DNA of 40,000 bases from contig JAKSNF010000015.1 in NCBI GenBank assembly GCA_024400115.1, positions 13,158 through 53,157 of the forward strand, in the 5' to 3' direction. Positions 86-37,450 of the stretch are shown here, in pieces. This DNA comes from Paludibacteraceae bacterium. GTDB taxonomy: Bacteria > Bacteroidota > Bacteroidia > Bacteroidales > Paludibacteraceae. The stretch's first letter is position 1. Every line of letters begins with the position of its first letter. The translations under genes and the position numbers were made by a program. The notes beneath the pieces are model-generated. The model had not been told where the DNA came from, ran no database searches, and saw nothing but the letters and a program-made list of their open reading frames with translations.

Positions 86-3000
86 ATGAAACACAATCTT
101 CTTTTTTTACTGCTCTTACCTGTAGTTGCGCTACAGGCGCAGATTAGCGGAACGGTAGTGGATGAGACGGGACAACCTCTTATCGGCGCCGCCGTACGCG
201 TGGTGGGTTCCGACCAAGGTACGATTACTGATTATGACGGCGTTTTTATTCTGCCCGACGCTCCTGCTGATGCTACGATCGAAGTGAGTTATGTAGGATA
301 CCTGCCGCAACGGCATCTCATAATTCAAAATTCAAAATTCAAAATTCAATTGCTTCCCGATGTGCAGAACCTTGAAGAAGTAATCGTAGTGGGTTATGGT
401 GCCGCTAAGATTAAAGACCTGACATCTCCTATTGAAGTGGTGAAGGGGGATAAGATTAGTGCTATCCCTACCTCCTCTGCCATAAGCGCTCTCCAAGGAC
501 AAGTAGCAGGTGTACACATCGTTAACTCCGGTGTGCCGGGTTCAGGTGCGTCCGTCACCATTCGCGGTTTGGGTTCGTTCTCGAACAACGCTCCCCTCTA
601 TGTGGTAGATGGTATGTTCTACGACAATATTAACTTCCTCAATAATAACGACATCGAGGAGATATCCGTCATGAAAGATGCTTCCGCAGCAGCTATCTAT
701 GGTGTACGCGCCGCTAACGGTGTTATTATTGTAACGACTAAGCATGGCAAGAAAGGTCAACAACGCCCCGATGTGACCTACGATGGTTATGTAGGACTAC
801 AAACGGTAAGCAATATACTCCCTATGTGCTCCTCTAACGAGTATGCACAGATGCTCATGGAAGCCGATCCGATGGCTTATACCACTTCTCTTGATGCTTC
901 GATGAACGCTTATGGCGGTTCGTTCGATGCCGAAACGGGGATATACAACCTTGCGCAGAACACAAACTGGTACAACCAACTGCTGCGCCCGGCAATGATA
1001 ACCAACCACAGTCTCAGTATCAACGGCGGTAGCGAGAAAGCCTCGTACGGAGTGGGTATATCCTACCTCTACCAAAACGGTATTATGAACACGACGAACG
1101 ACTATAACCGCATGACCATTCGCGGTAATGTTGATTATACGCCCGTTAAATGGCTCACGGTGGGAATGAACGCCGTCTTCTCTAACTCCACCCAACGGTT
1201 GCCTAATAATGCCGCTTGGCAACAGGCGTTTAATATGCCCGGACTATTCCCCACCTACGACGGCACAACCAAAGACCTATACACGGACGGGTACGCTTCG
1301 CCCGAGACAATAGGACTGTCACAAAACTTCTACAACCCCGTGGCTACAGCAAACCTCTATAACGCTACCAATCGTTCGGCACAGATATTGGCGAATATAT
1401 ATGCACAATTCAATATATGGCAGGATAAGATTGCTCTCCGCACCTCTTATAATTATGACCACACGGGCATGCGCGCGAACACATATTTGCCGCAGTACTA
1501 TATCAGTCCTTTCCAACAGAACACCACCTCTACACTCTACAAGAGTCAGACGCAGTTTAATAACTGGATTTGGGATAACACCCTCACCTATAGCGACGAG
1601 TGGGGCAAACACGCCTTCAAAGCGATGCTGGGTCTGAGCCTTCGCGAAGAGAGAATGGATTTCCTGCAAGGATCTGTGCAAGAGGTGCTGCCGGAAGAGA
1701 GTTATCAGTATATATCTTTAGGAAACAAAGAAACTCGAGAAGTGAGCGATAACGGTTCACGCTACCGCGGTTTCTCCTATTTCGGTCGTGTTAGCTATAG
1801 TTACGACGAGCGTTATATGATTATGGCCACCCTCCGCCGCGATGGCAGTAGTAAGTATAACGAGAAGTGGGGCACTTTCCCGTCTGTGGGTTTGGCTTGG
1901 ACGATCTCTAACGAACCGTGGGCGAAAGGCATTAAGAACTTTGACTACCTCAAACTGCGTGCTTCGTGGGGTTTGCTTGGTAATGACAAAGTGGCAGCGA
2001 GTGTAGGCGAACTGACCGTTACACCGGCACAAGCCGTCTATGGCGGCATGAACGTGATGGACGGATTCATCAACGCCACCACCTTCTCTTGGCTCACATG
2101 GGAGAAAGTGAACGAGACCAACGTGGGAACCTCCTTTGGTTTCTTCGGTAATCGCCTCACGGGAGACATTGACTGGTACTATCGTCTCACACAGAACGCC
2201 GTTTGCTCCGCTCGCTTGCCTATGCAAGATGCAGATGCTACCGGTAACTGGGCAAACATACTCAATATGGGTGTGGATATTAACCTCCATTGGGAACATA
2301 AGGTCAACAAAGATTGGACTTACTTTATTGGCGGTAATGTGAGTTGGTTACAGAACAGCGTGAAGAGCCTCTTTGGTACCCAACAAATACTCAAAGGTGG
2401 TAAGACCGTTCAAATGGTTGGCGAGAAGATGAATAGTTACTACGGCTACCAAGTAATAGGCGTTTATCAAAACGAAGAAGAGATTGCCTTAGACCCCATT
2501 GCCGTTGCTAATAACCTCCAACCCGGAGACTTCAAATACAAAGATGTTAACGAGGATGGGGTGATGGACGATAAGGATAAGCAGATTCTTGGTTCTTATA
2601 TCCCTGATTGGACCTATGGTATCAACCTCGGTTTCCGTTACCGCGGACTCGACTTGACGGTCGGTTTGAGCGGACAAGCAGGAGGCGAGATATGGAATCG
2701 TAAACGCGCATTACGCTATGCTTGTAATACATATAATTTCGATAAGGACCAATTCAACAATCGTTGGCACGGAGAAGGCACTTCCACGATGAACCCCTCT
2801 GCCGGAGCGTTGATGAAGTCTTGGAATATCGGCGAAACGGCTAACGCCAGTTATTTCGTAGAGCCGTCTGACTATTTCCGTATTCAGAACATAACCCTCG
2901 GTTATACCTTTACTAATGTGGGTGCCGGAACCTATAAGATGCCCTCTATCCGCCTCAGCCTCACGGCAGATAAGCCTTACACTTATTTCAAGGCTAACGC

Positions 3001-3094
3001 CATGACCCCCGAACTGAGTGACGCACAAGGGTGGGACACCGAGGTTTATCCCCTCACCGCTACTTGGTCTTTTGCTGTTCAACTTAAATTCTAA
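86..3094 (+). CDS. SusC-like TonB-dependent outer-membrane transporter
   Basis: Track ORF 56..3094. The ATG at 86 gives the signal peptide MKHNLLFLLLLPVVALQAQ. It has a carboxypeptidase-regulatory-like N-domain (ISGTVVDETGQPLIGAAVRV), plug motifs (IVVGYG, NAPLYVVDG) and a roughly 1000-aa barrel ending in F. A SusD-like gene follows 7 nt downstream. Confidence 0.9.
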   Translation: MKHNLLFLLLLPVVALQAQISGTVVDETGQPLIGAAVRVVGSDQGTITDYDGVFILPDAPADATIEVSYVGYLPQRHLIIQNSKFKIQLLPDVQNLEEVIVVGYGAAKIKDLTSPIEVVKGDKISAIPTSSAISALQGQVAGVHIVNSGVPGSGASVTIRGLGSFSNNAPLYVVDGMFYDNINFLNNNDIEEISVMKDASAAAIYGVRAANGVIIVTTKHGKKGQQRPDVTYDGYVGLQTVSNILPMCSSNEYAQMLMEADPMAYTTSLDASMNAYGGSFDAETGIYNLAQNTNWYNQLLRPAMITNHSLSINGGSEKASYGVGISYLYQNGIMNTTNDYNRMTIRGNVDYTPVKWLTVGMNAVFSNSTQRLPNNAAWQQAFNMPGLFPTYDGTTKDLYTDGYASPETIGLSQNFYNPVATANLYNATNRSAQILANIYAQFNIWQDKIALRTSYNYDHTGMRANTYLPQYYISPFQQNTTSTLYKSQTQFNNWIWDNTLTYSDEWGKHAFKAMLGLSLREERMDFLQGSVQEVLPEESYQYISLGNKETREVSDNGSRYRGFSYFGRVSYSYDERYMIMATLRRDGSSKYNEKWGTFPSVGLAWTISNEPWAKGIKNFDYLKLRASWGLLGNDKVAASVGELTVTPAQAVYGGMNVMDGFINATTFSWLTWEKVNETNVGTSFGFFGNRLTGDIDWYYRLTQNAVCSARLPMQDADATGNWANILNMGVDINLHWEHKVNKDWTYFIGGNVSWLQNSVKSLFGTQQILKGGKTVQMVGEKMNSYYGYQVIGVYQNEEEIALDPIAVANNLQPGDFKYKDVNEDGVMDDKDKQILGSYIPDWTYGINLGFRYRGLDLTVGLSGQAGGEIWNRKRALRYACNTYNFDKDQFNNRWHGEGTSTMNPSAGALMKSWNIGETANASYFVEPSDYFRIQNITLGYTFTNVGAGTYKMPSIRLSLTADKPYTYFKANAMTPELSDAQGWDTEVYPLTATWSFAVQLKF
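322..349. repeat. Heptamer tract (AATTCAA)x4, inside the SusC-like CDS
   Basis: Four perfect units read directly from the sequence. Translated as IQNSKFKIQ. Confidence 0.95.
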
Positions 3095-3100
3095 TGTCCT

Positions 3101-4624
3101 ATGAAAAAGCATACATCATACATCATACATCATACATTGGTAATAGCATCTATGCTATTAATCAGTTCTTGTTCGTTCCTCGATATTAATGTGGAGAACC
3201 AACTTCCGGCAGCGGCGGTAGATTATACGAATACATCCGATATGTATTCCCCCGTAGTGGGCGTATATGCTAAGTTGCGCTTCCCGGGTTGCCACTGGAT
3301 CAATCAGATGCTATGGACGGGACGCGATGAAGATATGACCTCGGGTCGAACCGATGACCAAGCCGAAGCACTCCTCTATAGTTATCGCGGTGGGTATCAG
3401 AACCCTAACTCGTTCTGGGGACTGCGTAACGTGTGGGTAACCCTGTACGATATTATTCGCACATCTAACTCTGCTTTACAGTCATTAGATGAATATGCCC
3501 AATATATCACCGACCATAACTCCCAAGACTATGCCGATTACCTCCAATACCAAGGGGAAATCAAGTGTATGCGGGCTTGGGCATACTTCATGATGGTCAC
3601 CTCTTTTGGCCCTTGTCCGCTCCTTACCGATAATGACCAACAAGACTACACCCGCTCCACGGTGGAACATGTCTGCGACTACGTCATTGCTGACCTTGAA
3701 GCCTCTATCCCCCATATGACAGCCGCTTATCCGGGCGAGATGCCCCACCAGGGTGCTTTCACTAAATACACGGCAGAGGCATTAGCCGCTCGTTTTGCTA
3801 TGCTCAAAGGCGATTGGCAGAAGATGCAAGACCTAACGGCGGATATCATTGGTAGCAGTAAGTTTGAATTAGCTTCCTCCACCAACGACGATTACTATAA
3901 CCTGTTTAAGATTCCGGGTAAACTCTGCCGCGAGAGCCTGATGGAGGTACAAGTGACGGATTACGGACAGCAGTCCGGCGATTACATCGGTGTTGATCAG
4001 TGGTTCGTTTGTCAAGGCGGAGAAGTGAGGAGCGCAGACAAAACAATCAATATCGCAGGTTGGAAATTCTGCCGCTTCAATCCGAATTTTGTTGCGTGGG
4101 CAGACGAACGGGGTGAGAAAGCCCGTCGCGAAGTTAGTTTCTTGGTAGGCGGAGAGACGCTACGCAATGGCTGGAAAGTGGCATTAACAAAGAAAGTGAT
4201 TTTTAATGCTAAGGCTTATATCCCTTATGAACAAATGACCGGTTCGGCAACCGAGTTTGGACGGAATAATAATGTGCGCTTACTTCGTTATGCTGAGGTG
4301 CTACTTATGAATGCGGAAGCCTCTTTCCGCTTGGGTAATACAGATGCCACTTTCCTCAATCAAGTACGTGCCCGTGCAGGATTAGCTCCCGTGGCTGCCT
4401 TAACTGAGGATATTATCTTAGACGAGCGTCGTATCGAACTTAGTGCTGAATGGGGACTACATTACGTGGATCTCGTTCGTACAGGTCGCGCAGCGCAAGT
4501 GCTCAACCAAGAGTCACTCACACGCGATTATGCCCCCGGACAATGGACCGAGGATAAGAAATACTGGCCTGTACCCGGAGAGGTACTCGCCGAATTACCC
4601 GAACTGGCTAACGAACCCAAGTAG
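3101..4624 (+). CDS. SusD/RagB-like outer-membrane lipoprotein
   Basis: 507-aa ORF directly after the SusC-like gene. It has a lipoprotein signal ending LLISSC. C-terminal motifs NNVRLLRYAEVLLMNAEA and DERRIELSAEW are typical of the SusD family. Confidence 0.88.
   Translation: MKKHTSYIIHHTLVIASMLLISSCSFLDINVENQLPAAAVDYTNTSDMYSPVVGVYAKLRFPGCHWINQMLWTGRDEDMTSGRTDDQAEALLYSYRGGYQNPNSFWGLRNVWVTLYDIIRTSNSALQSLDEYAQYITDHNSQDYADYLQYQGEIKCMRAWAYFMMVTSFGPCPLLTDNDQQDYTRSTVEHVCDYVIADLEASIPHMTAAYPGEMPHQGAFTKYTAEALAARFAMLKGDWQKMQDLTADIIGSSKFELASSTNDDYYNLFKIPGKLCRESLMEVQVTDYGQQSGDYIGVDQWFVCQGGEVRSADKTINIAGWKFCRFNPNFVAWADERGEKARREVSFLVGGETLRNGWKVALTKKVIFNAKAYIPYEQMTGSATEFGRNNNVRLLRYAEVLLMNAEASFRLGNTDATFLNQVRARAGLAPVAALTEDIILDERRIELSAEWGLHYVDLVRTGRAAQVLNQESLTRDYAPGQWTEDKKYWPVPGEVLAELPELANEPK
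3110..3137. repeat. Heptamer tract (CATACAT)x4, inside the SusD-like signal peptide
   Basis: Four perfect units starting 9 nt after the ATG. Translated as HTSYIIHHT. Confidence 0.95.
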
Positions 4625-4625
4625 T

Positions 4626-4688
4626 GTTTAGAGTTTAAAGTTGAAAGTTTAAAGAAGCCGTCTAGTTGTATAGTTTAGAGTTGAGAGT
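4626..4688. repeat. Composite intercistronic element E1: GTTTAGA-type units + AGCCGTCTAG + GTTTAGA-type units
   Basis: Sequence: GTTTAGA GTTTAAA GTTGAAA GTTTAAA G-AAGCCGTCTAG-TTGTATA GTTTAGA GTTGAGA GT. It lies between the SusD-like stop and the GH144-like start. Confidence 0.9.
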
Positions 4689-5981: not shown

Positions 5982-5991
5982 CATATACTCT

Positions 5992-8900
5992 ATGAAACAC
6001 AATTCATCATTACACCATTACATCAATTTATCATTAATCACCCTTCTACTCCTCTCCGGCTGCCAAAGCAAGGAGGAGCGGTTCGTCAATAACCTTATGA
6101 GTCAGATGACCTACGAAGAGAAACTGGGTCAACTCAACCTCTTGCCCGTCAATGGCGACATCGTCACCGGTGCCGAAGTGGGCGAATACGACCTCGGCGA
6201 CCGGATAGCCAAAGGTGAGGTCGGAGGACTATTCAACCTCAAGGGCGTAGATAAGATTCGCGAGGCACAACGCATCGCCGTTGAACAATCGCGTCTCGGT
6301 ATCCCTTTAATCTTCGGTATGGATGTTATTCACGGTTATGAGACCGTCTTCCCTATTCCACTCGCTCTGTCCTGCTCGTGGGACACCGCAGCTATTCGCC
6401 TCTCGGCTCAGACTGCCGCCAAAGAGGCTACCGCAGATGGTATATGCTGGACTTTCTCGCCGATGGTAGATATATGCCGTGATGCCCGTTGGGGACGCAT
6501 TGCCGAGGGTAATGGCGAAGACCCGTTCTTAGGTTCGGCTATCGCCCAAGCGATGGTAAAAGGTTATCAGGGAACTGACCTCACGTCACCTTATACGATG
6601 TTAGCTTGCGTTAAGCATTTTGCCCTTTATGGTGGAGCAGAAGCCGGACGCGATTATAACACGGTCGATATGAGTCCCTACCGCATGGCGAATGATTACC
6701 TGCCGCCTTATAAAGCCGCTCTTGATGCCGGTTGCGGTTCGGTGATGGCTGCTTTCAATACGATCAACGGCGTTCCCTGCCACTGCAACCAATGGTTACT
6801 CACGGACTTACTCCGCAAGCAATGGGGTTTTGAAGGTTTTGTCGTAACCGACTATACAGGTATCTTAGAACTCATCGCTCACCGTATGGGAGCCGATCTC
6901 GAGACAGTGGGGCAACGCGCCTTACAAGCCGGGTGTGATATGGATATGGTATCCGAGGCACTGAATATGAGGCGACAGGCAACAGGCGACAGGCGACGGG
7001 TTGAACAGGCATGCCGCCGTGTGCTGGTTGCCAAGTACCGTTTAGGTTTATTCGATGACCCCTATCGCTACTGCGACGATAGTCGTCGTGCCACCGATAT
7101 CTACACGGAGGCAAACAAAGCCCAAGCTCGCCACCTCACCACCGAGACCTTTGTCTTATTAAAAAATAGTCCTTCAGCCACACCATCCACCATCCACAAT
7201 CCACAATCCACACTCCCCCTGTCACCGACAGCCAAGGTCGCCCTTATCGGTCCTCTTGCTGACACGCGTGCGAACATGGCAGGTACATGGTCAGTTGCGG
7301 CTACGTTTGATTATAAGACCGTTCGTGAAGCCTTTGAGGAAATGTTGCCTAAAGGACATTTCTTCTATGCTAAGGGTTCAAATATCGAGTATAGTAAAGA
7401 ACTACAACAGCGGGGTGAGTTAGCCGGTCGTTCTATTTGGGACGAGCGTTCGCCCGAACAGATGCGTCAAGAAGCGATGGCTGCTGCCCGTAAGGCAGAC
7501 GTTATTGTGCTGGCTATGGGTGAGAGTTCGGAGATGTCAGGTGAGAGTGCTGCTCGCACGAGTCTGACGATGCCCAAGGCGCAACAAGACCTCATCGACG
7601 CCCTCGCCACGCTTAATAAACCGATGGTACTACTCAATTTCTCGGGGCGTCCTGTGGTATTGACCCATGAGGCAGAGGTGTGTGACGCTATTCTGCAAGT
7701 ATGGTTTGGCGGGTCGGAGACGGCAGATGCTATAGCAGATGTAGTGTTTGGTAAGGTTAGTCCGTCGGGCAAACTGACGACTTCTTTCCCGCGCAGCGTA
7801 GGGCAAGAGCCACTCGGCTATCGCCAGTACTCAACGGGTCGCCCGATAGAGGATGGTGAGTTCATTAAGTACCGTTCCGGTTATCTGGACGAGAACACCC
7901 TACCCCTCTACCCCTTCGGTTATGGACTCAGTTATACTACCTTCAACTACTCCAATATCACCCTACACCCCTATACCGGTGTCGCCGAAGCGACCCCTAC
8001 CCCCCTACTCCCCTACTCCCTCAATCTTACGGTAACGAACACGGGTAAGATGGCCGGAGCAGAGGTAGTGCAGTTATATGTACGTGCCCATCACTCGACG
8101 TGGGCTCGTCCTGTACGTGAATTACGCGGTTTTGAGCGCGTTGAGTTAGCGGCTGGTGAGAGTAAAGAGGTAAGTTTTGCCATTACAAACGAGACCTTAG
8201 GTTATTACGATGATAAGATGAACTTCATCGTAGAACCCGGCATATATGACATCTTTATCAATGACCTATTCGTGGGACAAGTAGGCGAGAAACAAACCCA
8301 TCTCTACACACTTACCAATAGCAATGGCGTGCGTGTAGATATAACCAATTTCGGAGGACGCATTGTGTCTCTTTGTGTACCTGATAAAAAAGGACAATTA
8401 CAAGACGTTGTTTTAGGCTTTGATAACATCAAAGACTATGAGAATATCCCCTCCGACTTCGGTGCTTGCATCGGTCGTTATGCTAACCGCCTAAACAAAG
8501 GACAAATAACCGTTAACGGCGTACAATATCAACTACCCACCAATAATTTCGGGCACACCCTGCATGGTGGTCCTACGGGTTGGCAGTACCAAGTCTATGA
8601 GGCAGAACAAATAAGCGACCAGTGCCTCAAACTGACTATCGTTTCTCCTAATGGGGATAATGGTTTCCCCGGTCAAGTGACGGCTTCTTGCACCTATACA
8701 CTGACGGAAGATAACACGCTGGTTTTAGACTATGAAGCCACCACCGATGCGCCTACGGTTATTAACATGACCAACCACACATACTTCAACCTCAATGGTG
8801 ACGGAAGTACATCTATTCTCAATAATGAGTTATGGCTTAATGCCGACCAAATGACCCCTGTCGATAATACATATATGACTACGGGTGAGATAGTAACCAT

Positions 8901-10662: not shown

Positions 10663-10666
10663 AATA

Positions 10667-10719
10667 GTTTAGAGTGGAGAGTTTAGAGTGTAGAGTAGCC
10701 GTCTAGTTTAGAGTTTAGA
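10667..10719. repeat. Composite intercistronic element E3: GTTTAGA-type units + AGCCGTCTAG + GTTTAGA units
   Basis: Sequence: GTTTAGA GTGGAGA GTTTAGA GTGTAGA G-TAGCCGTCTAG-TTTAGA GTTTAGA. It lies between the MATE ATG (10662) and the peptidase-like gene, whose last codons and stop it encodes. Confidence 0.9.
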
Positions 10720-11171
10720 GGTAAATAAGTGTGTCTGTATATTTTTAGTAGGTAGCGGCGGAAGGGTTTGAGAAGGCGCCAAAGGCGACCTTTGGTAAGG
10801 GGTTTCTTATGCCCCTTGGGTGAACGTATCTCAATGACTGTTCCTAATATATCTTCTGAAGAACAATGCTCGTACCCTTGCAGGTTGCCGTCACCCTGAA
10901 GGGTGATTGAATTATGAGTTATGAATTTTGAATTATGAGTTATGAATTGTTTAACAACGCGGTGGAGGATGTAGCGGTCGGCGATGTGGGCGAGGACGAT
11001 GTCACCTACAGCGATGGTGGGTTTCTTGATAAGGGTGACGGAGTCCTTGCCACCCTCAATAAAGGGACGCATACTAACGCCACGAGGGGTGAAGATAACC
11101 TCCTTACCCTCCTTGAGTAGGCGTTCTATTTCCTCTAATAATATATCACTTTGTACTGCCGGCATGAGCAA
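10683..11171 (-). CDS. S24/S26-family serine peptidase-like protein
   Basis: 162-aa ORF. GVSMRPFI (Ser nucleophile context), GDIVLA and ILHRVV resemble signal-peptidase/LexA-fold peptidases. It overlaps the upstream gtrA-like gene by 26 nt. Its C-terminus and stop lie inside a repeat element. Confidence 0.55.
   Translation of the reverse strand: MLMPAVQSDILLEEIERLLKEGKEVIFTPRGVSMRPFIEGGKDSVTLIKKPTIAVGDIVLAHIADRYILHRVVKQFITHNSKFITHNSITLQGDGNLQGYEHCSSEDILGTVIEIRSPKGHKKPLTKGRLWRLLKPFRRYLLKIYRHTYLPLNSKLDGYSTL
10908..10949. repeat. Heptamer tract (TGAATTA/TGAGTTA/TGAATTT) x6, inside the S24-like CDS
   Basis: Six units, 42 bp or 14 codons. Translated on the minus strand as QFITHNSKFITHNS. It belongs to the AATTCAA family. 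Confidence 0.95.
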
Positions 11172-11649
11172 ATGAAAAATACTTCTGACAGAAGAACGAA
11201 ATAATAACAGTAATAACAGTAATCACCATCTTACTGGGCGTAGGATACCAAGCAAGAACATCGACACAGAGTTTAAGTCCGAAATAGTTAATTGCCAAAT
11301 TGATAGCCACAACCAAACAATAACGAATAAACTGCTTCCTTGTTTTTATATCCGATTGGGTGAAAGTGATATGTTTATTTAGCCAAAAACCGGTAAGAAG
11401 GGTAATAGGGAAGACGATGCACAATGACGCTATATGAGGCGTCATTGTGATAGTTGAGAGTGGAGAGTTGAGAGTTATTAACTCGTGACCGATGACGAAA
11501 TTATAGATGATAAAGTATAAAATCCAGTCGAGGACCATGTTTCCACCACCACACATTCCGTAGGTAAAAAGCTGTTTTGGCACCCATTTTTGGAATGGAT
11601 GATAGAAAAAATCAATGATTTTTGTAATTATTTGCGCTATTTTTTGCAT
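11146..11649 (-). CDS. GtrA-family membrane protein
   Basis: 167-aa ORF with 4 hydrophobic segments. FTYGMCGGGNMVLDWILYFIIYNF and the C-terminal layout fit the GtrA-like family. Confidence 0.7.
   Translation of the reverse strand: MQKIAQIITKIIDFFYHPFQKWVPKQLFTYGMCGGGNMVLDWILYFIIYNFVIGHELITLNSPLSTITMTPHIASLCIVFPITLLTGFWLNKHITFTQSDIKTRKQFIRYCLVVAINLAINYFGLKLCVDVLAWYPTPSKMVITVITVIISFFCQKYFSFAHAGSTK
11453..11480. repeat. Heptamer tract GTTGAGA GTGGAGA GTTGAGA GTTATTA, inside the gtrA-like CDS
   Basis: Read directly from the sequence. Translated on the minus strand as ITLNSPLST. Confidence 0.9.
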
Positions 11650-11748: not shown

Positions 11749-12561
11749 ATGCAAACAGTACGTGCAAAAAAATACTTAGGTCAGCATTTTTTGAAGGACC
11801 TCAATGTCGCCCGCAAGATTGCTGAGACCTTGACCGAAGGACCCGTTTTAGAAATAGGTCCGGGTATGGGTGTTCTTACCCAGTTCCTACTTCAAAATCC
11901 TAATATTGACCTCACGGCTATCGAAATAGACCGCGAGAGTGTGGCTTATCTCCACGAGTATTATCCCGAACTCAAACTTATTGAGGGCGATTTTCTTAAA
12001 CTGGATCTCAATAAAGTATTCCCAACAGGCAGTTTTTCGGTGATAGGCAATTATCCGTATAATATATCCAGTCAGATATTCTTCAAGGTACTTGAATACC
12101 GAGAACGTATCCCCGTTTGTTCGGGTATGATACAAAAAGAAGTGGCAGAACGACTGGCTTCTAAACCGGGCAAGAAAGAGTATGGTATATTATCCGTTTT
12201 ATTACAAGCGTACTATAATATCGAATATCTCTTCACGGTGGACGAATATGTTTTTGCCCCTCCGCCCAAGGTGAAATCGGCCGTTATTCGCTGCACACGA
12301 AACGAGCGACAGTCATTAGGATGTGACGAAGAACTATTCAAACAAGTAGTGAAAACGGCCTTTAACCAGCGACGAAAACAGATGCGAAACTCCTTGAGAG
12401 TTGAAAGTTTAAAGTTAAAAGTGGAAAGAAGTTGGATAGAAGATAGTGAAAAGTTAAAAGAATTCTATTCTGACCCTATTTTTAACAAGCGACCAGAGCA
12501 ACTGAGTGTAGAAGAATTTATTGAACTAACCCTTAAAATTGAAAAACTATGTCAGAAGTAA
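11749..12561 (+). CDS. rsmA: 16S rRNA (adenine1518/1519-N6)-dimethyltransferase
   Basis: 270-aa ORF with [21 protein letters not shown] (SAM-binding motif), [11 protein letters not shown] and [12 protein letters not shown] consensus promoter lies upstream. Confidence 0.92.
12393..12427. repeat. Heptamer tract CTTGAGA GTTGAAA GTTTAAA GTTAAAA GTGGAAA, inside rsmA
   Basis: Read directly from the sequence. Translated as [12 protein letters not shown]. Confidence 0.9.
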
Positions 12562-14593: not shown

Positions 14594-15834
14594 AGAGTTT
14601 ATTGATTATATTATCCGTTCTAACCTTCGAAGTGAACGGCGTTACCTTTCAACTTAATGAAGTGGAAGGCGGAACGTTCATTATGGGCGCTACAGAAGAA
14701 CAAGGTTCAGAGGAAGAAATAAGCATAGATAAACCTGTTCACTCTGTGGCTGTACAATCGTTCTATTTAGGTCAAACGGAAGTAACCAATCGACTATGGA
14801 ATGCCGTAATGGTCGCTCCGGCGACTCCGATAAAGGCAATAGGCGACAGGCAGCAAGCGACAGATAATGAGATGCAAGGTGAGATATGGGCAGCGGCTGA
14901 TTGTCCGGTAGTACTGCATTCGTGGTTTGAGTGTCAGGAGTTTATTCGTAGGTTAGATTCTATAACAGGTATAGATTTTCGTCTCCCTCATGAAGCGGAG
15001 TGGGAATATGCTGCCCGCGGAGGGAAGAAAGGTAAAACAACCCGTTATGCCGGTAGTGATAATGCCGACGAGGTGAGTTGGTTATACCGCAATAGCGGTA
15101 ACCGTTCGCACGCCGTGGCTCAGAAAAAACCCAACGAATTGGGACTATACGATATGACGGGTAATGTATGGGAGTGGTGCTTAAATGATTTCTATCCTTA
15201 TCAATCTTCACCTGAAGTAATATCTGTGCTTAAAGAGGCAGCTGATACAGCCAAAGTGCTCAAAGTGATGCGTGGTGGCAGTTGGGATAATGCTATCAGT
15301 AATAGTCACCTCTCCGTTCGCCGCACCGAATATCCGCAATATGCCTTTCACGACTGCGGACTGAGATTAGCACTGAGTAAAAAGATAGAACCCACTGTAT
15401 TACCCCAAACAAAAAAAGTGCGCATTAAGGGTTATACTATGAACTTTAATTTGGTTATGCCTCAAGATTCTATTAATCCTTACTATTTAGCTGAAGAAGA
15501 TGTGAGTGCTGCCTTATGGAAAGCGGTTATGCGCAAAAAAATGTATAAGGTAAGTAAAGAGGAAGTACAGTCTTTTCTTTATCAGATTAGCGATAAAACA
15601 GGGTATCAGTTTAGTTTAGTTCCTTCTAACGAGCAGGTAACTGATTTTTATTTTGATGAAGAAATAGATAAAAAGAACGTAAAAGTTTCTAAACGCAAAT
15701 CTATAAAAAAGGCTAATGTACTTTTAGAGTTATTTACAGGAAGAGAAAATACCATAGATGAACCAACCGACTATACTTTATTACGTTATAAACAAGAAAC
15801 TCCTCGAACAATTAGACTTATTATAATTCCATAG
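14590..15834 (+). CDS. Formylglycine-generating-enzyme (SUMF1/FGE) domain protein with a C-terminal extension
   Basis: 414-aa ORF. The GTG start overlaps the nadA stop (GTGA). It has an N-terminal signal-like segment and FGE-fold motifs HSVAVQSFYLGQTEVT, LPHEAEWEYAARGG, GNVWEWC and RGGSWDN. The last ~150 aa match no family I recognise. Confidence 0.8.
   Translation: MKSLLIILSVLTFEVNGVTFQLNEVEGGTFIMGATEEQGSEEEISIDKPVHSVAVQSFYLGQTEVTNRLWNAVMVAPATPIKAIGDRQQATDNEMQGEIWAAADCPVVLHSWFECQEFIRRLDSITGIDFRLPHEAEWEYAARGGKKGKTTRYAGSDNADEVSWLYRNSGNRSHAVAQKKPNELGLYDMTGNVWEWCLNDFYPYQSSPEVISVLKEAADTAKVLKVMRGGSWDNAISNSHLSVRRTEYPQYAFHDCGLRLALSKKIEPTVLPQTKKVRIKGYTMNFNLVMPQDSINPYYLAEEDVSAALWKAVMRKKMYKVSKEEVQSFLYQISDKTGYQFSLVPSNEQVTDFYFDEEIDKKNVKVSKRKSIKKANVLLELFTGRENTIDEPTDYTLLRYKQETPRTIRLIIIP
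14842..14862. repeat. Heptamer tract GGCGACA GGCAGCA AGCGACA, inside the FGE-domain CDS
   Basis: Three units, 21 bp. Translated as GDRQQAT. Confidence 0.8.
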
Positions 15835-17979: not shown

Positions 17980-17982
17980 ACT
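17953..17982. repeat. Heptamer tract CTCTACA CCCTAAA CTCTACA CTCTAAA CT (reverse complement of the GTTTAGA family)
   Basis: It covers the last codons (YTLNSTL) and the TAA of the EEP gene, and also the stop of the convergent COG0523 gene. Confidence 0.9.
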
Positions 17983-19150: not shown

Positions 19151-19168
19151 ACATTAAACATTATACAT
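19141..19168. repeat. Heptamer tract TATACAT CATACAT TAAACAT TATACAT
   Basis: It covers the NlpC/P60 stop (19161-19163) and the COG0523 ATG-ATG start (19150-19145). Confidence 0.9.
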
Positions 19169-20012: not shown

Positions 20013-20092
20013 TGTCTTGTTATTTTTCACTTTGTTTTTGACATTTCTTAGCCAACGGGCACGATTAACTTCGTTTTTCGAAAAACTGACTG

Positions 20093-20508: not shown

Positions 20509-20551
20509 AAAAGGCAAACACAACCATCGCAACCCCGAGAGGTTGCGATGG
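20509..20551 (-). terminator. Intrinsic terminator candidate downstream of the LRR gene
   Basis: CCATCGCAACC-ccgaga-GGTTGCGATGG forms an 11-bp stem (20524-20551). On the minus strand it is followed by TTGTGTTTGCCTTTT. Confidence 0.6.
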
Positions 20552-20602
20552 AAGATATATCTGTCACCCTTCCCTTTAGGGAGGGGATGTGGGTAGGCTT
20601 AT

Positions 20603-24077: not shown

Positions 24078-24134
24078 AATAACTATTTTTTAATTTCTTA
24101 GCCACAAGGGCACGATTAATTTCATTTTGCGCTG

Positions 24135-30296: not shown

Positions 30297-30322
30297 CATG
30301 CTCAATCAGATTATTATCCTAC

Positions 30323-30384
30323 AGCGTAGCGGTCTTTCAGCCGAAGGCGGTCCTTCAGTGAAACGGTCTTGCAGCTCAGCGGTC
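30323..30384. repeat. 16-18-bp tandem repeat in the panD 5' leader
   Basis: (G/A)CGGTC starts at 30329, 30347, 30363 and 30379. The first three copies are followed by TTTCAG, CTTCAG and TTGCAG. The repeat lies between the panD promoter and the ATG at 30399. Confidence 0.85.
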
Positions 30385-30398: not shown

Positions 30399-30743
30399 AT
30401 GTTTTTAACAATACTCAAATCAAAGATTCATCGCGTCAAAGTGACGGAAGCCAATCTCGAATATATCGGCTCTATCACGATAGATGAGGATTTAATGGAT
30501 GCAGCCGGTATTCTTGCCGGTGAACAAGTAAGCGTGGTAGATAACACCAACGGTGCCCGCCTTGAGACTTATGTTATTGCCGGTAAACGCGGAAGCGGTT
30601 GTATATGCATGAACGGTGCTGCCGCCCATCTGATGCACGTTGGTGACACCGTCATTATCATGGCTTACGCCCTTATGACACCCGAAGAGGCGAAGACGTT
30701 TAAACCTATGATTGTTTTTCCGGAAAACAACCTTTTAGTTTAG
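30399..30743 (+). CDS. panD: Aspartate 1-decarboxylase
   Basis: 114-aa [32 protein letters not shown] contains the Gly-Ser self-processing site. The stop TAG lies in the first unit of a heptamer tract. Confidence 0.92.
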
Positions 30744-30791
30744 AGTTTAGAGTTGAGAGAAGCCGTCTAGTTTATAAGTTTAGAGTTAATT
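30738..30791. repeat. Composite intercistronic element E2: GTTTAGA units + AGCCGTCTAG + GTTTAGA units
   Basis: Sequence: GTTTAGA GTTTAGA GTTGAGA G-AAGCCGTCTAG-TTTATAA GTTTAGA GTTAATT. The first unit supplies the panD stop TAG. The element ends 2 nt before the tgt ATG. Confidence 0.9.
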
Positions 30792-31923: not shown

Positions 31924-31930
31924 CTAACCC

Positions 31931-31972
31931 CAGACATTAAACACTAGACACCAAACACCAGACACTAAACAT
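31931..31972. repeat. Heptamer tract CAGACAT TAAACAC TAGACAC CAAACAC CAGACAC TAAACAT
   Basis: Six units, 42 bp. It fills the tgt / lptF-G spacer and ends 3 nt before the ATG at 31975. Confidence 0.95.
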
Positions 31973-31974
31973 CA

Positions 31975-33057
31975 ATGAAGCTTTTCACTCGGCTTGACCG
32001 CTATATTATCTTTAAGTTCTTGGGCACTTTCTTTTTCTCGATAGTGCTTATCCTTAGTATTGCGGTGGTGTTTGATGTGACAGAGAAAATGGACGACTTC
32101 TTTGAGCACCAAGTTCCGCTCCGTGAGATAGTGGTGGATTATTACTTCAATTTCTTCCCCTACTACCTTAATATGTTCAGTTCGCTGTTCATCTTTATTT
32201 CGGTTATCTTCTTTACCTCTAAATTGGCTGGCAATAGTGAGATTATCGCAATGCTCTCTACCGGAATGAGTTATCAGCGACTGATGTGGCCCTATTTCCT
32301 TTCTGCCCTCTTTTTGTGCCTTATGACCTTTTGGTTAGGTGGATATGTTATTCCTAAGGCATCGGGTAAGATGCTTGCTTTTGAGGATAAGTACATCAAT
32401 CAGTTTACTACAGAGCACGCTCGTAATATCCAGATGCAAGTCGAACCCGGGACGGTGTTGTATATGGAGTCCTTCCAATTGCGTACCGGTGTAGGTTATC
32501 GCGTTTCGCTGGAGCATTTTGACGGTAAGATGCTGACGTCCCGTACCACAGCCGATCGTATTCGCCATGATTCGGCTTATAACTGGCACATGGAGAACTA
32601 TGTAGAGCGCAGTTTTGTGGGAATGCGAGAAAACATGGAGAAGGGGTATCGTAAAGACGTGGTTATCCCCATTGAACCGAAAGAACTATTTATCACTGCC
32701 GAAGAGGCGCAACGGATGACCAATCCCGAATTGCGCGAGTTCATGGCTAAACAATCCGCTCGCGGAGCAGGAAACATAGAAGCCTTCAAAACCGAGTGGT
32801 ATAAACGCTGGGCTTCGGCTTTGGGTGCGTTTATAGTCACGCTATTGGGCGTTACTATGTCCTCAAAGAAAGTGAGAGGGGGTATGGGTAAGAATCTCGG
32901 TTTAGGTATTGTGCTCACGGCGCTGTATATCCTTTTCTCTACCGTTTCCACCACTTTCTCCGTTACGGGCGTTATGTCACCCTTCATGGCAGCGTGGTTA
33001 CCTAATTTCGTCTTCTTGGCAATCGGAATAGTGCTCTATATACGCGTGCGCCGCTAA
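31975..33057 (+). CDS. LptF/LptG-family (YjgP/YjgQ) LPS export permease
   Basis: 360-aa ORF. It has the N-terminus LDRYIIFKFLGTFFFSIVLI, three N-terminal TM segments, a periplasmic insert, and three C-terminal TM segments. Confidence 0.85.
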   Translation: MKLFTRLDRYIIFKFLGTFFFSIVLILSIAVVFDVTEKMDDFFEHQVPLREIVVDYYFNFFPYYLNMFSSLFIFISVIFFTSKLAGNSEIIAMLSTGMSYQRLMWPYFLSALFLCLMTFWLGGYVIPKASGKMLAFEDKYINQFTTEHARNIQMQVEPGTVLYMESFQLRTGVGYRVSLEHFDGKMLTSRTTADRIRHDSAYNWHMENYVERSFVGMRENMEKGYRKDVVIPIEPKELFITAEEAQRMTNPELREFMAKQSARGAGNIEAFKTEWYKRWASALGAFIVTLLGVTMSSKKVRGGMGKNLGLGIVLTALYILFSTVSTTFSVTGVMSPFMAAWLPNFVFLAIGIVLYIRVRR

Positions 33058-33065: not shown

Positions 33066-35144
33066 TCATAGCGGATCTACATCCATCAGTATTTGTATTG
33101 CTTTGAGATTGGGCAGACTATGAATATAGTCTATTTGTTTTTGTAGTAATGTCTTGGCTTTACTGAACGAAGCGGAGGCTTCTATCCGCAAACGTATATT
33201 CCTTATATATAAATTATTTATACGCTGAATAGCCGGCAAGAGCACTATCGAGCAACGCTCCCCAAAACTCTGTGCCATCAACTGTTGCAGCAAATAGGCG
33301 GCACTCTCCACTTTGGCGCTATCACTATGTCGGAGTGTGACTTCGATAAGACGATAGAAAGGAGGATACTTGAAGGTCTTGCGCTCTTTTATTTCGTTGG
33401 CATAAAGACCTGTATAATCATGGTTCTTGACAAACTCATACACCTCGTTCTTAGGGTCGAACGATTGGATATACACTTGTCCTTCCGTGCCTTTACGTCC
33501 GGCGCGTCCTGCCACTTGTTCCAATAACTGATACGCCCTTTCGGTAGAGCGGAAATCAGGTTGTGCCACAATCTGGTCGGCATTGAGAACAGCCACCAAA
33601 GACACATCGTCGAAATGTAGTCCCTTGGTTACCATCTGGGTACCAATCAGTATATCTACTTCGTGACGCGCGAAGGAGTCAATGATCGTCTGATAATCGT
33701 CCTTGCGACGGGTGGTGTCTAAGTCCATCCGAATTACGCGTGCCTGAGGAAAAAGTTTGTGTACCTCTTCTTCGATACGCTCTGTACCAAAACCGTGTGT
33801 CTTCATTTCTCCCCCACACTCGGGACAAACGGTAGGAAGCGGAATAGTGTGCCCGCAGTAGTGACAAACGAGTTGGTGGGTGTTGAGGTGAACGGTCAAA
33901 CTCACATCGCAGTTGGGACAACGAGGCGGTTGACCACATTGTGTGCATTGTACAAAGGGTGCATAACCACGTCGGTTCTGAAAGAGAATAATCTGCTTAC
34001 CCTTACTTAACTCTTCTTTTATGCGTGTGACCAACGGGTCGGAGAAGTGTTCGTACATCTCCTTGCGATGATACTGCCGTTGAAGGTCAATGAGTTCAAT
34101 CGTGGGCAAGGCTAATCCTGCATAACGCTCCGTCAAGTTCACTAAACCGTATTTGCCGGCTAAGGCATTATGATAGGTCTCTACCGAAGGGGTAGCAGTA
34201 CCTAAGAGCACTTTGGCTTTTTGCTGAGCGGCAGCCATGATAGCTACTGAACGAGCATGATAACGCGGAGCCGGGTCTTGCTGTTTGTACGAAGGCTCAT
34301 GCTCCTCATCTACAATAATCAAACCTAAATTATTTAGGGGCAAGAAAATAGCGGAGCGCGCTCCGACAATTAAATGACCGCTGTCGCTGTAAGACAATAA
34401 TCTTCGGTAGATTTCGACCCGTTGTGCATCTGTGATACGCGAGTGATAGACATAGAGACTATCGCCAAAGTGAGCAGCGAGACGTTCGGTTAGTTGGGTA
34501 GTGAGGGCAATCTCGGGTACGAGATAAAGGACGTTCTTGCCTGCGGCTAAGGTCTGTTCAATGAGGTGCATATAGACCTCCGTCTTACCCGACGAGGTCA
34601 CTCCGTGAAGTAACACCACATCTTTGCTTTGCCACTGCTCTTGTATTGTAAATAAAGACCGTTGCTGCGCAACTGTAAGACCGGGCAAAGCCCTGTAAGA
34701 CCGTCCTTGTAGGACTGAAAGATTCGCTAATGCCCCTTCGGCTGAAGGGTACGTGGGGATTTTGACTCTCCGTTTCTTTTCGGGATCAAAGGAGTAGGTC
34801 TTGTCCATGGCTTTGACAGGTAAGGCTGCGGCAAGCACATCACCGATGGGGCACATATAATAGTCGGATATCCATCGCCATAGTTTGAGTTGGTTTTCCG
34901 TCACCATCGGTTCCTTATCTAAGACACATATAATCTCCCTCAACTTAATCTCGCCTGTCGCCTGTTGCCTGTCGCCAGTCGCCACTATCCCCACTACCTC
35001 TTTCTTCCCTAACGGCACTATAACACGAGTGCCCGGTTGGGGGCACTGTATGCTGTCGGGGACGAGATAGGTGTATGTGTCCGCGATGGCTAAGGGTAAT
35101 ATAACCTCAATTCTCTGCGGCAAGGGCTTTAGCGTAACATGCAC
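33066..35144 (-). CDS. priA: Primosomal protein N' (replication restart helicase)
   Basis: 692-aa ORF with Walker [18 protein letters not shown], a Cys-rich zinc region ([20 protein letters not shown]...CHYCG...CPECG) and GTQMVTKG. The start is uncertain: GTG at 35144 or TTG at 35123. It overlaps the tdk stop. Confidence 0.9.
34951..34985. repeat. Heptamer tract TCGCCTG x2 TTGCCTG TCGCCAG TCGCCAC (reverse complement of the GGCGACA family), inside priA
   Basis: Five units. Translated on the minus strand as [12 protein letters not shown]. Confidence 0.9.
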
Positions 35145-35694: not shown

Positions 35695-37450
35695 ATCTTA
35701 TATCTTTTACTCTCATCTCAATCGAGTGTACGCCATTGAAGACGTTCTCTTCCAACTCATATACCACATCTACCTTATTGCCGTTTTGTATATACAAGGC
35801 GGCATCACCCTTACCAAACGCTATGCCACTGATAGCGGCAGTACCGTCGGTCAAATCCAATTTAAGGTGCTCCCCCGTCTTACCGCAGCGTTTGGTATAG
35901 CGGTTATTGACCATGTTTCTGGTCACGAAGAGGGGACGCGGGTTTTCCGGACCAAACGGTTCTAAGCATTGCAGCACCTTAAAGAACTGCGGCGTTATAT
36001 CCTCAAGGGCTATCTCAGCCTCTATGTTTAAGGTTGGTTGCTGTTGCTCAGGCAGTATATGCTGCTTCACATAATCGTCAAAACGAACTTTGAATGCCTC
36101 TAAGTTCGCTTCCGGCAGGGTCAGTCCTGCCGCAAAGAGGTGACCGCCGAACGTTGTCAGTAAGTCCGAACAAGCGTCGATGGCCGAATATAAATCAAAG
36201 CCCTCTACCGACCTTGCCGAACCGGATATAAGACCGTCGCCTCCGCCGGTCAATACTATCGTGGGTCGGTAATAGGTCTCAATCAGTTTACTGGCGGCAA
36301 TACCGACTACGCCTTTGTGCCAGTTGGGGTTATAAACGACCGTTGTATGTTTATGTTCATTCTCGGGGTCTGCTGCCAATTGCTCCAAGGCTTCGGTAGT
36401 AATCGTGTCCTCCTTACCCTTGCGTTCTTGGTTATAGGCATCTACGGCTTGCGCTAAAGCGAAGGACTCTTCAGCATTCTCGCTAAGCAAGAGGTTCACC
36501 GCTTCTATGCCCGATTTCATTCTGCCACAAGCGTTGATACGCGGTCCAATCTTAAACCCAAGGTCGGTAATGGTTATCGTCTGATTAGCCAGTCCCGCTA
36601 CATCTATAATCGCTTTCGGACCTATCTTCGGTCGCTCGTTGAGTTCTTTTAGGCCATAAGTAATCAGTATCCTATTCTCCCCCGTGATAGGCACTATATC
36701 CGACGCTATCGACATAGCGAGGTATTGTAGCAAAGACTGTAAGACCGCTTCGCTGCAGGATTGCTTCGCTGTAAGATATTTTAGGGTATAGGCGCAGCAT
36801 AGTTTATATCCTACTCCGCAGCCGGAGAGGTGTTTATAGGGATAATCGTCATCCTTGCGCTCCATATCGAGTACGGCTACCGCTGCGGGTAGTTCGTCTC
36901 CGGGGGTGTGGTGGTCGCAGATGATAAAATCGATACCCTTGCTCGTGGCGTACGCCACTTTATCTATCGCTTTGATTCCGCAATCAAGTGCAATAATGAG
37001 CGTGCACCCTATCTCTTTGGCGTAATCAATGCCCTTAAACGATATACCATATCCCTCCGTATAGCGGTCGGGGATGTAGTAGTTTAGAGTGGAGAGTTTA
37101 GAGTTTAGAGTGGAGAGTTTAGAGTTTATTAGGTCTTTGAGGAACGTAACCATCAATGTCACAGAGGTGGTGCCATCAACATCGTAGTCGCCATAAATGA
37201 GGATATGTTCGCCCGTCTCGATGGCGCGGTGCAATCGTTCCACGGCTTTGTCCATGTCCTTCATGAGGAATGGGTCGTGCAATTGGTTAAGGTTAGGACG
37301 GATATAAGCGCGAGCGTCATTAGCTGTCGTGAGACCTCTATCTACCAGCATTTGTGCCGATAGATTGGAGATATGCAGTTCTCCGGCTAACTGTTCGCAC
37401 AAGGCCTTCTCCGCCTCCGTCAGTTCCTTTATGTTCCAAACATTATCCAC
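35684..37450 (-). CDS. recJ: Single-stranded-DNA-specific exonuclease
   Basis: 588-aa ORF with DHH motifs ([22 protein letters not shown]) and DHHA1 (GGHLFAAG). It carries a 49-bp heptamer tract translated as [15 protein letters not shown]. Confidence 0.92.
37082..37130. repeat. Heptamer tract (GTTTAGA GTGGAGA GTTTAGA) x2 + GTTTATT, inside recJ
   Basis: Seven units, 49 bp. Translated on the minus strand as [16 protein letters not shown]. It has a 21-bp super-period. Confidence 0.95.

Follow-up and report, generated by a model that had tools for sequence, protein, structure and literature searches.

Tandem arrays of seven-nucleotide units dispersed through bacterial genomes have been known since 1990, when the short tandemly repeated repetitive sequences (STRRs) were described, and their origin and spread are still unexplained. 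Mazel reportedly described STRRs as tandem heptamers dispersed in cyanobacteria, and Elhai and co-workers in 2008 are said to have found small dispersed repeats (SDRs), very small non-coding elements of tens of nucleotides (nt), some with conserved hairpins, that are nested in heptamer arrays and were recently mobile. A part in transcript stability or in translational coupling has been suspected for STRRs (PMC2670836). Direct repeats of the heptamer TAACTGA are known from five Bacteroidetes, among them Paludibacter propionicigenes, as well as from Beggiatoaceae and cyanobacteria (MacGregor 2015, PMC4679880), and heptanucleotides are the commonest class of long simple sequence repeats (LSSRs) in bacteria (Mrazek, Guo and Shah 2007, cited after PMC4679880 and PMC4692102). 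Repetitive extragenic palindromes (REPs) and Rickettsia palindromic elements (RPEs) supply TAG stops and are also found in-frame inside tRNA synthetases and enzymes of DNA replication and repair, which they lengthen by 20-30 residues (Di Nocera 2013, PMC3733652). Here we describe a dense population of heptamer arrays in 40,000 nt of a Paludibacteraceae genome (GCA_024400115.1, contig JAKSNF010000015.1, positions 13,158 to 53,157; hereafter the window), together with a ~60-nt composite element built around such arrays. An earlier note on this DNA, made from the letters alone, had held that none of the usual classes of repeat fits; dispersed heptanucleotide repeats (LSSRs, STRRs, TAACTGA repeats) are in fact a described class, if a mechanistically unexplained one.

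Using a lag-autocorrelation scan with a threshold of at least 16 self-matches in 21 positions, in which lags 3-15 were compared and dinucleotide shuffles served as the null, we detected 19 lag-7 tracts in the window, as opposed to 0-2 tracts at every other lag save lag 14 (twice 7) and zero lag-7 tracts in the shuffles. The 20 tracts that the earlier note had listed are all present at, or within a few bases of, the positions it gave, and the peptides it quoted are correct (Table 1). Tandem Repeats Finder (TRF) assigned period 7 to 18 of them and period 8 to 7994-8020, the single departure from period 7 that had been announced; 14842-14862 is too short and degenerate for TRF, and its units GGCGACA GGCAGCA AGCGACA belong to the family of 6970-6997 and 34951-34985. 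For comparison we used related loci (designated L001 and so forth) that consist of 8-kb tiles and RecJ-anchored loci; all of these genomes are metagenome-assembled genomes (MAGs), and gene calls outside the window are six-frame open reading frame (ORF) heuristics. The window holds 4.75 lag-7 tracts per 10 kb and seven RecJ-anchored loci of relatives, picked without regard to repeats, hold 0.9-4.1, compared with 0.23 (1 tract in 43 kb, ~20-fold below the window) in a Parabacteroides distasonis region of similar G+C that carries the homologous SusC/SusD/glucoamylase/BglX polysaccharide-utilisation locus, and 0 in 50 kb of E. coli. Tract density is thus far above both shuffled sequence and an unrelated Bacteroidales control.

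Units of the GTKKARA type account for 175 of 294 tracts, and the remaining tracts fall into limited recurring families such as GTGGATK, GTGATTK, GTGTYTG, GGCGACA, AAGGACA and AATTCAA; neither TAACTGA units nor the STRR1-3 units of heterocystous cyanobacteria (CCCCAGT, TTGGTCA, CAACAGT) occur in any of the 294 arrays. In the window, GTTTAGA-type arrays stand at only 7 loci, not at the 8 or more first counted, with 23 two-unit matches against 0.04 expected, and the 6:1 preference of GTKKARA arrays for the + strand is not significant. Sharing between loci extends to the order of unit variants: GGCGACA-GGCAACA-GGCGACA is found in the window genes for GH3, the FGE-sulfatase-like protein and PriA, with similar translated peptides, and the same order recurs in L057, L069 and L088. 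An independent local origin of these arrays in unrelated genes is very unlikely. Families also grade into each other within single arrays, indicating that in-place unit turnover happens as well: the PriA array of L002 passes unit by unit from GTGGATT through GTGGATA and GTGGAAA to GTTTAAA, and the TGT-LptF/G spacer of L092 mixes CCAGACA and CCATCCA units.

Three window tracts, at 4626, 10666 and 30737, have the common core AGCCGTCTAG and are copies of one ~60-nt element, the composite. Aligning 101 copies on the core yielded the consensus TA-(GTKKARA)n-GWAGCCGTMTA-GTTNNNNA-(GTTKARA)1-3, in which the left arm has four units in 51 of the 101 copies, three in 16 and five in 19, the TA ahead of it is present in about two thirds, the tetranucleotide following GTT is variable, and the 11-nt core plus the 8-mer were found in every composite. 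When one genome per species (185,579 species, 596 Gb) was scanned for the exact 21-nt pattern GTKKARAGWAGCCGTMTAGTT, 87 stretches with ~100 matches emerged, ~9 chance hits being expected by our own arithmetic, and the matches are confined to 12 related gut MAG species representatives. Eleven of the 12 genomes are labelled Paludibacteraceae or uncultured Bacteroidales; for three of these the names give horse faeces, red deer and roe-deer rumen as the source. Cultured Paludibacter, P. propionicigenes included, had no match in this species-representative scan. The twelfth, L041 (JAGHTK010000126.1), is a 5.6-kb contig binned as Candidatus Alistipes equi that also bears a divergent version of the nested hairpin insert described below, and could be mis-binned or horizontally transferred. 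The 101-copy alignment shows no inverted ends. The composite folds no better than shuffles in either orientation (z = -1.2 and -0.3), and the same holds for a composite with a nested insert and, tested separately, for the 16-17-nt array; we rejected an RNA-structure reading of the composite. Rfam gave nothing relevant for the whole window at gathering score or for 19950-20650 at E<=1, and there are no tRNAs in the window.

Comparison of close relatives revealed that whole composites are gained or lost as a block. L030, L007 and L032 have one that L046 lacks, the flanks being 95-98% identical, and another is present in L067 at a junction where L011 has overlapping genes (ATGA). At site B of MutS2, L016 has a full composite, L040 (MutS2 97% identical) a simple array that is 33 nt shorter and without the core segment, and L055 and L023 the native TTAAAGTTGAAAAAAG. 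The junctions of four filled/empty pairs showed no consistent target-site duplication or microhomology, a possible ~9-nt target duplication being seen at one site (L030 versus L046) and the other sites not being clean. PriA arrays start at a native GTGGAT and the empty MutS2 site reads TTAAAGTTGAAA, a hint of microhomology priming of copying.

Resident arrays also change by unit steps. Between two conspecific genomes, L001 and L094 (98.3% identity), a stretch of 10.4 kb shows five indels, of which three are array-unit indels and one of these a single 7-nt heptamer, and the TGT-LptF/G spacer has 0 units in L003, 2 in L001, 3 in L094 and 6 in the window, with CCATCCA units only in L002. Tandem duplications of 6-12 nt are in excess generally, and the 7-nt class alone expands past two copies. 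Such stepwise differences and turnover in place are what ordinary LSSRs would produce, each array growing from a local chance proto-repeat in a lineage whose replication machinery favours 7-nt slips, with no copying between loci; the prominence of heptanucleotides among the LSSRs of many bacteria, and the polymerase-footprint idea put forward for it (Mrazek 2007, cited after PMC4679880 and PMC4692102), point the same way. Local slippage does not, however, readily yield one ~60-nt architecture with an 11-nt non-heptamer core at ~100 unrelated loci, identical ordered unit variants in three unrelated window genes, elements that come and go as a block or families that swap at the same protein loop (see below), and we consider it decidedly improbable that it operates by itself.

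Between co-directional genes, composites lie in sense orientation in 51 cases and antisense in 15, the upstream stop codon falling at the left arm or within it and the following ATG 0-30 nt past the right arm. Read directly from the sequence, three pure GTTTAGA units contain TAG in all three frames, and their reverse complement contains TAA. The first window copy fills the spacer from the SusD stop to the glucoamylase ATG in sense and has an orthologous copy in L043. The third, also in sense, gives PanD its TAG stop and ends 5 nt ahead of the TGT ATG; orthologous copies occupy this panD-TGT site in L028, L087, L002 and L092, and L001 has just TAAGTTGAAAGTTATG there. The second adjoins the MatE start codon and is antisense relative to the flanking minus-strand genes. 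Taken together with the persistence of composites at orthologous sites across species and the essentially unstructured sense strand, this placement could mean that the repeats are functional cis-elements under selection, whose spread would be secondary: intercistronic RNA or DNA sites that end upstream translation in every frame, tune the translation or stability of the downstream cistron, or bind a regulator. An unstructured sense strand would suit the Shine-Dalgarno-independent initiation of Bacteroidota. Similar roles have been proposed for TAACTGA repeats (PMC4679880) and STRRs (PMC2670836). Selection for function sits poorly, however, with the faster evolution of orthologous composites than of their flanks (77% versus 85.5% identity, the element being the more conserved in only 11 of 45 pairs; the perfect identity of the window and L028 composites is an exception), with close relatives that lack the element or have overlapping genes at the same junction, with the lack of orientation bias among simple GTKKARA arrays (14 versus 11), with the ~20% of composites and 38% of all tracts that lie within proteins, and with the lack of an Rfam match. 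We regard such a primary function as unlikely, though not far-fetched.

The earlier note had placed many tracts inside conserved genes; 13 of the 20 lie in-frame within ORFs, and the other seven are intergenic or on gene ends. Among 275 period-7 tracts in 732 kb, 62% are non-coding and 38% lie in frames open for at least 50 codons on either side. Every in-gene tract of the window that could be tested against orthologues proved lineage-specific. RecJ orthologues at 64% identity have 570 aa and are insert-free, and those of the close clade (74-90% identity) have 578-627 aa with four hypervariable hot spots; at hot spot 1 the window has the GTTTAGA/GTGGAGA-coded insert, a low-confidence loop that is the local minimum of the predicted local distance difference test (pLDDT) score in the AlphaFold model, and relatives have other repeat-coded peptides. 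Relative to the GH3 orthologue of the horse-gut relative L043, the tract at 6970..6997 adds 4 aa and that at 7178..7216 is a clean 12-aa insertion, and at the 7994..8020 loop L043 has a GTKKARA-type array (STTLNSTLYTLH) instead. The NlpC/P60 tract at 19876..19906 adds 7 aa compared with L002. The SusC and SusD tracts (318..349 and 3110..3137) leave protein length equal to that of the P. distasonis orthologues, and the PriA tract (34951..34985) is an equal-length swap for the native loop, at which relatives carry GTKKARA arrays, some with a nested hairpin and some without. Since these three tracts are as long as the native sequence, it was overwritten rather than extended. Different repeat families thus replace each other at one and the same loop in RecJ, GH3 and PriA.

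Composites also reside within proteins, ~20 of 103 lying in long open frames, a breadth that rests on six-frame ORF analysis combined with Pfam. Pfam-confirmed hosts are DNA polymerase I (in the linker that joins the 5'-nuclease domain to the polymerase domain), arginyl-tRNA synthetase, IspG/GcpE, UDP-galactopyranose mutase (Glf), MBOAT, an RlmL-like methyltransferase, a GT9 heptosyltransferase, an Rce1-like protease and MutS2, which hosts the composite in-frame at three sites. In sense the composite is translated as SLEFKVESLKKPSSSEVESLK, and antisense reading gives a different 20-aa peptide. A protein-universe search with the doubled composite-encoded peptide produced 29 word-sharing candidates, none of which scored. 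Variant units, GTGGAGA or GTTGAAA for example, take the phase of a would-be in-frame TAG or TAA and so keep the frames open, and this stop avoidance accounts for the perfect 21-nt super-periods of the RecJ tract and of 10907-10949.

Some arrays contain a further, nested insert of ~42 nt, of which we found nine copies, for example GTT-CTTAGCCCCGAGGGGCACGATCGGCAAAGCCGTATG-GAGA. It lies at a constant unit phase (GTT-insert-GARA) and in a single orientation, with no target duplication, and at a site whose flanks are 96-97% identical L090 and L025 have it and L086 lacks it. Each copy forms two small GC hairpins whose stems vary yet pair (GCCCC/GGGGC versus CTCGGC/GCCGAG; CGGC/GCCG versus GCGAC/GTCGC), nine copies being too few for statistics, and the 3' end of the insert resembles the 11-nt composite core, which contains GTAG and CGTC. 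A dedicated enzyme might move these inserts and perhaps the composites, with heptamer arrays as its targets: a single-strand HUH/Y1 transposase like RAYT or those of IS200/IS605, or else a different nuclease or integrase whose gene lies elsewhere in these genomes. The preserved pairing, the fixed phase and orientation and the presence of GTAG and CGTC, both tags of REP superfamilies (PMC3733652), all speak for such an enzyme, as does the likeness to REPs in supplying TAG stops and occupying replication and repair genes. The composite itself, on the other hand, has neither an inverted repeat nor a significant fold, REP doublets were not observed, transposition does not overwrite coding sequence at equal length, and no transposase was seen in the loci of relatives, a genome-wide transposase search not having been made. 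We rate this explanation as quite unlikely.

Two further kinds of hairpin or palindrome were observed. The motif TTCTTAGCC-N3-5-GGGCACGATTA, equivalent to the left half of the 42-nt insert and without an Rfam match, occurs at window positions 20042-20075 and 24092-24125 (+ strand) and in L001 (minus-strand offset 4598, near + coordinate 17150). It follows, at a distance of ~20 nt, the Bacteroidetes-type promoters (TAnnTTTG) of the NlpC/P60 and GNAT-like genes, which are on the minus strand. Further palindromic inserts, tiny and GC-rich (CGCCTATGGCG, GTACGCCCTTTGGGC), come after GT(T) in composites at or near the variable tetranucleotide (L092 16700-16760; L087 3750-3790; L038).

The reading that we favour, with a confidence about evenly poised between acceptance and doubt, is that the window tracts are a local sample of a clade-wide set of very small, non-coding, non-autonomous repeats in uncultured herbivore-gut Paludibacteraceae, shaped by inter-locus copying, slippage and selection. 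Arrays and composites would first be copied from existing copies to new sites by a templated, possibly microhomology-primed process, through ectopic conversion or a putative trans-acting enzyme. A resident array would then grow, shrink and homogenise its units by replication slippage in 7-, 14- or 21-nt steps, and could also act as a landing pad for the smaller GC-rich hairpin inserts. Purifying selection would finally leave only harmless copies, either in intercistronic stop-to-start spacers, where the sense orientation supplies TAG in all three frames, or in surface loops and linkers of proteins, where one frame stays open and the length changes by a multiple of three. Inter-locus copying seems required by the shared architecture and unit order, the clade restriction and the presence or absence of whole blocks; local slippage by the unit indels and super-periods; and a strong selective filter by the placement and the open frames. 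Equal-length overwriting suggests a conversion-like event rather than transposition.

Several points weigh against this reading. The filled/empty pairs gave no donor-recipient junction signature, and no mobilising gene was identified in the related loci, whole genomes not having been searched. Arrays also evolve in place, with the unit type turning over within one orthologous spacer, so that loci may in part have come by the same unit families through convergence. The equal-length replacements in PriA, SusC, SusD and MutS2 site C are not what simple insertion would predict. All genomes are MAGs, gene calls outside the window are crude ORF calls, and the composite pattern itself served to choose the related loci. 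The preference of composites for the sense orientation might, moreover, be a sign of function and not of mere tolerance.

The earlier note had proposed that a lineage-specific process copies short heptamer arrays, an idea to be dropped if distant orthologues carried the same peptides or if density did not exceed that of shuffled sequence and unrelated Bacteroidales; neither was found, as the in-gene tracts that had an orthologue for comparison are lineage-specific and the density lies above the controls, and the clade-confined composite and the shared unit order lend the proposal support. Of the mechanisms it had named, a tiny non-autonomous element suits the GTTTAGA family well, given a ~60-nt multi-copy composite that is restricted to one clade and present or absent between relatives. 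The others fared worse. Iterative copying of a 7-nt template at breaks, in the manner of a telomerase, or footprints of a transposon with a 7-bp target duplication that was inserted and excised time and again, would explain a period of strictly 7 and the absence of the whole composite from some orthologous sites, and GTTTAGA is one base off the plant telomere unit, a resemblance only. Ordered unit variants shared between loci, 14- and 21-nt super-periods, a conserved 11-nt core and 8-mer beyond the reach of any 7-nt template, the many unit families side by side and the lack of a transposon within any array leave these two mechanisms unsupported and make them extremely unlikely. At the bolder end, the composite and its nested hairpins might constitute a previously unrecognised kind of ultra-small mobile DNA (~60 nt, direct heptamers, no inverted ends), spread by dedicated machinery of the clade, which would place it between stop and start codons and also, in-frame, in essential enzymes of replication, repair and translation, the arrays being self-made landing pads; we put this forward tentatively, as a possibility that is improbable on present evidence.

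By Pfam, the window comprises a SusC/SusD polysaccharide-utilisation locus with a glucoamylase and a GH3-aldose-epimerase ORF, followed by genes for MatE, GtrA, RsmA, CorA, NadA, an FGE-sulfatase-like protein, cysteine desulfurase, an EEP nuclease, CobW, NlpC/P60, a BspA-type leucine-rich repeat (LRR) protein, NadB, a TonB-dependent receptor, PanD, TGT, LptF/G, PriA, thymidine kinase, RecJ, a CN hydrolase and FloA. ORF 10683-11171(-), host of the array at 10907..10949, has no Pfam match. The RecJ encoded here is identical to a protein annotated as coming from a Paludibacteraceae MAG, and the TGT maps to GCA_024500545.1. Beyond the window, the ATCCACM family (7178..7216) is seen again at many loci in L002, L008, L034, L063 and L084, an array related to CCTGTAG/CCAGTAG (19876..19906) is found in L050, and the GTGCATY family also occurs in BspA homologues of L015, L022 and L049.

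Table 1. Heptamer tracts and composite copies of the window, in positions of the whole 40,000-nt stretch.
Position	Strand	Tract	Location and reading	TRF
318..349		AATTCAA x4.6 array	in-frame, SusC-like CarboxypepD_reg domain, aa 89-98 IIQNSKFKIQ	96% matches
3110..3137		CATACAT x4 perfect array	SusD-like signal-peptide region, aa 4-13 HTSYIIHHTL	100% matches
4626..4688	+	composite copy 1, 63 nt: four GTKKARA units, core GAAGCCGTCTA, GTTGTATA, two units		
6970..6997		GGCGACA-GGCAACA-GGCGACA-GGCGAC array	GH3, between N and C domains, aa 336-345	
7178..7216		ATCCACM array	GH3, aa 405-416, peptide ATPSTIHNPQST	
7994..8020		CCCCTAC(T) array, period 7/8	GH3 linker preceding Fn3-like domain, aa 677-686	
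10666..10720	+	composite copy 2: four units, core GTAGCCGTCTA, two units		
10907..10949		TGAATTA/TGAGTTA array, perfect 21-bp super-period	in-frame, ORF 10683-11171(-), peptide QFITHNSKFITHNS	period 21, 100% matches
11448..11480	+	GTTGAGA/GTGGAGA array	antisense reading in GtrA-like protein, aa 57-66 LITLNSPLST	
12393..12428	+	GTTGAAA/GTTTAAA array	sense reading, past RsmA methyltransferase domain, aa 215-227	
14842..14862		GGCGACA GGCAGCA AGCGACA, three units	FGE-sulfatase-like protein, aa 85-91 GDRQQAT	
17952..17982	-	GTKKARA-type array	final codons and stop of EEP gene, convergent junction with CobW	
19139..19168		xATACAT array	fills NlpC/P60 stop to CobW start spacer (minus-strand genes)	
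19395..19422		CCTTGTT array	NlpC/P60, aa 234-243 GQMNKEQGQG	
19876..19906		CCTGTAG/CCAGTAG array, perfect 14-bp super-period	NlpC/P60, aa 74-83 ATGYRLLATG	
20681..20708		GTGCATY array	BspA-type LRR protein, close to C-terminus, aa 471-480	
30737..30791	+	composite copy 3: three units, core GAAGCCGTCTA, GTTTATAA, then GTTTAGAGTT		
31926..31975		CAGACAC/TAAACAC array, six units	fills TGT stop to LptF/G start spacer	
34951..34985		GGCGACA-family array (+ strand TCGCCTG)	loop of PriA 3' DNA-binding domain, aa 54-65	
37081..37130	+	GTTTAGA/GTGGAGA array, perfect 21-bp super-period	antisense reading in RecJ DHH domain, aa 107-123	

Other repeats and insertions were noted along the way. A second dispersed tandem family with a period of ~16-18 nt and the unit CAGCGMAGCGGTCTTA occupies window positions 30320-30380 and 36737-36771, directly upstream of the panD ATG and in-frame at RecJ hot spot 2; in relatives it is found at RecJ/PriA hot spots (L001, L002, L003, L093, L094) and in IspG (L052), encoding QRSFSDSGLSAQRS-like peptides, and it differs by an 18-nt unit indel between the conspecific L001 and L094. 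Three adjoining 11-bp x2 tandem duplications lie at 20165-20259 in the long spacer upstream of NlpC/P60, period-11 tracts being the second commonest class in several relatives (L002, L003 and L004 were noted). The 69-bp (23-aa) tandem repeats at 21240-21909 (~9.7 copies, 76% identity) are ordinary LRR coding repeats of the BspA-type protein, unrelated to the heptamers. In the MutS2 C-terminal region of L016 (~6300-6420), L040 and L077, a 9-nt (3-aa) array of AAATCCGGA x5 (KSGNTGKSGDSGKSG) follows the heptamer array, at a site where L055 carries a full composite. A ~440-nt non-coding insertion at 37451-37891 separates the stop of the CN-hydrolase gene from the start of recJ, is bounded by imperfect inverted repeats of 18 nt (37467-37484 and 37871-37888) and is probably a MITE-like element (MITE, miniature inverted-repeat transposable element); it is present in L094, ~95% identical by eye, and absent in the conspecific L001 and in L002, L003, L004 and L092, where the genes overlap. 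At 5965-9303, a GH3 beta-glucosidase (N, C and Fn3-like domains) and an aldose 1-epimerase domain share a single 1112-aa ORF, of which L043 spans the GH3 part only; the two may truly be fused, or a stop or frameshift may have been missed.

This clade offers a tractable case of dispersed heptamer repeats: given the high density, the trackable composite, the nested mini-inserts and the many related MAGs with filled and empty sites and polymorphic unit numbers, metagenomes already at hand could be used to test how the repeats are copied and what they do to fitness. A 7-nt repeat may be able to remodel loops of essential proteins (RecJ, PriA, PolA, MutS2, ArgRS, IspG) repeatedly without inactivating them, as a source of length variation. 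Such repeats will also affect gene callers, orthology pipelines and MAG assemblers.

Among described systems, the TAACTGA repeats (PMC4679880) are dispersed short arrays of 7-nt units as well, mostly intergenic, whose forward copies carry three-frame stops, overlap the upstream stop and end a few nt before the next start, a placement that we see in the window copies at 4626, 30737 and 31926; reverse copies are likewise tolerated in ORFs, and strains likewise differ by indels in 7-nt steps. The Paludibacteraceae repeats differ in their units (GTKKARA and others), in the ~60-nt composite with its non-heptamer core, in a far higher density of about one tract per 2-4 kb, and in having in-frame copies in interior loops of essential enzymes and not just at protein ends. 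With heptanucleotide LSSRs they have in common head-to-tail units of 5-11 nt beyond what composition predicts, over-representation of 7 nt, enrichment between genes, a contribution from slippage and copy number that shifts by whole units, as in the 7-nt indel of L001 versus L094, and with the GGGAATC/GGGGAYT repeats of Xanthomonas and Nostoc (PMC4692102) length and sequence that vary at the same junction between close relatives. Unlike in these, the units do not form G-quadruplexes, unrelated loci share unit families and their internal order, neither being locus-specific, and the arrays have embedded non-repeat cores and hairpins.

The SDRs of cyanobacteria, reportedly ~20-30 nt long, resemble the present case in being tiny non-coding elements within heptamer arrays with recent presence/absence, as for the 42-nt insert and the 33-nt core segment; here, by contrast, the host belongs to the Bacteroidota, the units differ from those of STRRs, and the 11-nt core and ~42-nt insert are distinct. 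REPs and REPINs (PMC3733652, PMC3116915) and RPEs are also high-copy extragenic repeats that lie just downstream of ORFs, with an in-frame subset. REPs, however, are imperfect palindromes of 20-40 bp with a GTAG/CGTC tag, often in inverted doublets, whereas the composite consists of direct repeats, is unfolded, forms no doublets and has its GTAG and CGTC without a stem; only the nested 42-nt insert is hairpin-like, as REPs are. The repeats do not represent MITEs, having no inverted ends and no consistent duplication at the four filled/empty pairs, and a CRISPR array, with 24-48-nt repeats and unique spacers, was rejected too, the units here being 7 nt long, head-to-tail and spacerless.

The tandem repeats of Borgs that lie within ORFs reportedly have units in multiples of three, and a 7-nt unit makes the reading frame rotate. 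According to PMC9879509, Borg repeats are likewise fast-evolving and lineage-specific, add disordered, low-complexity segments to proteins and populate intergenic DNA, and they arise independently at each locus, unlike the repeats described here, in which the same sequences, with a 7-nt unit, occur at many loci. The Paludibacteraceae repeats are thus a variant of the described heptamer repeats, whose density and insertions into interior loops of essential enzymes exceed published descriptions.

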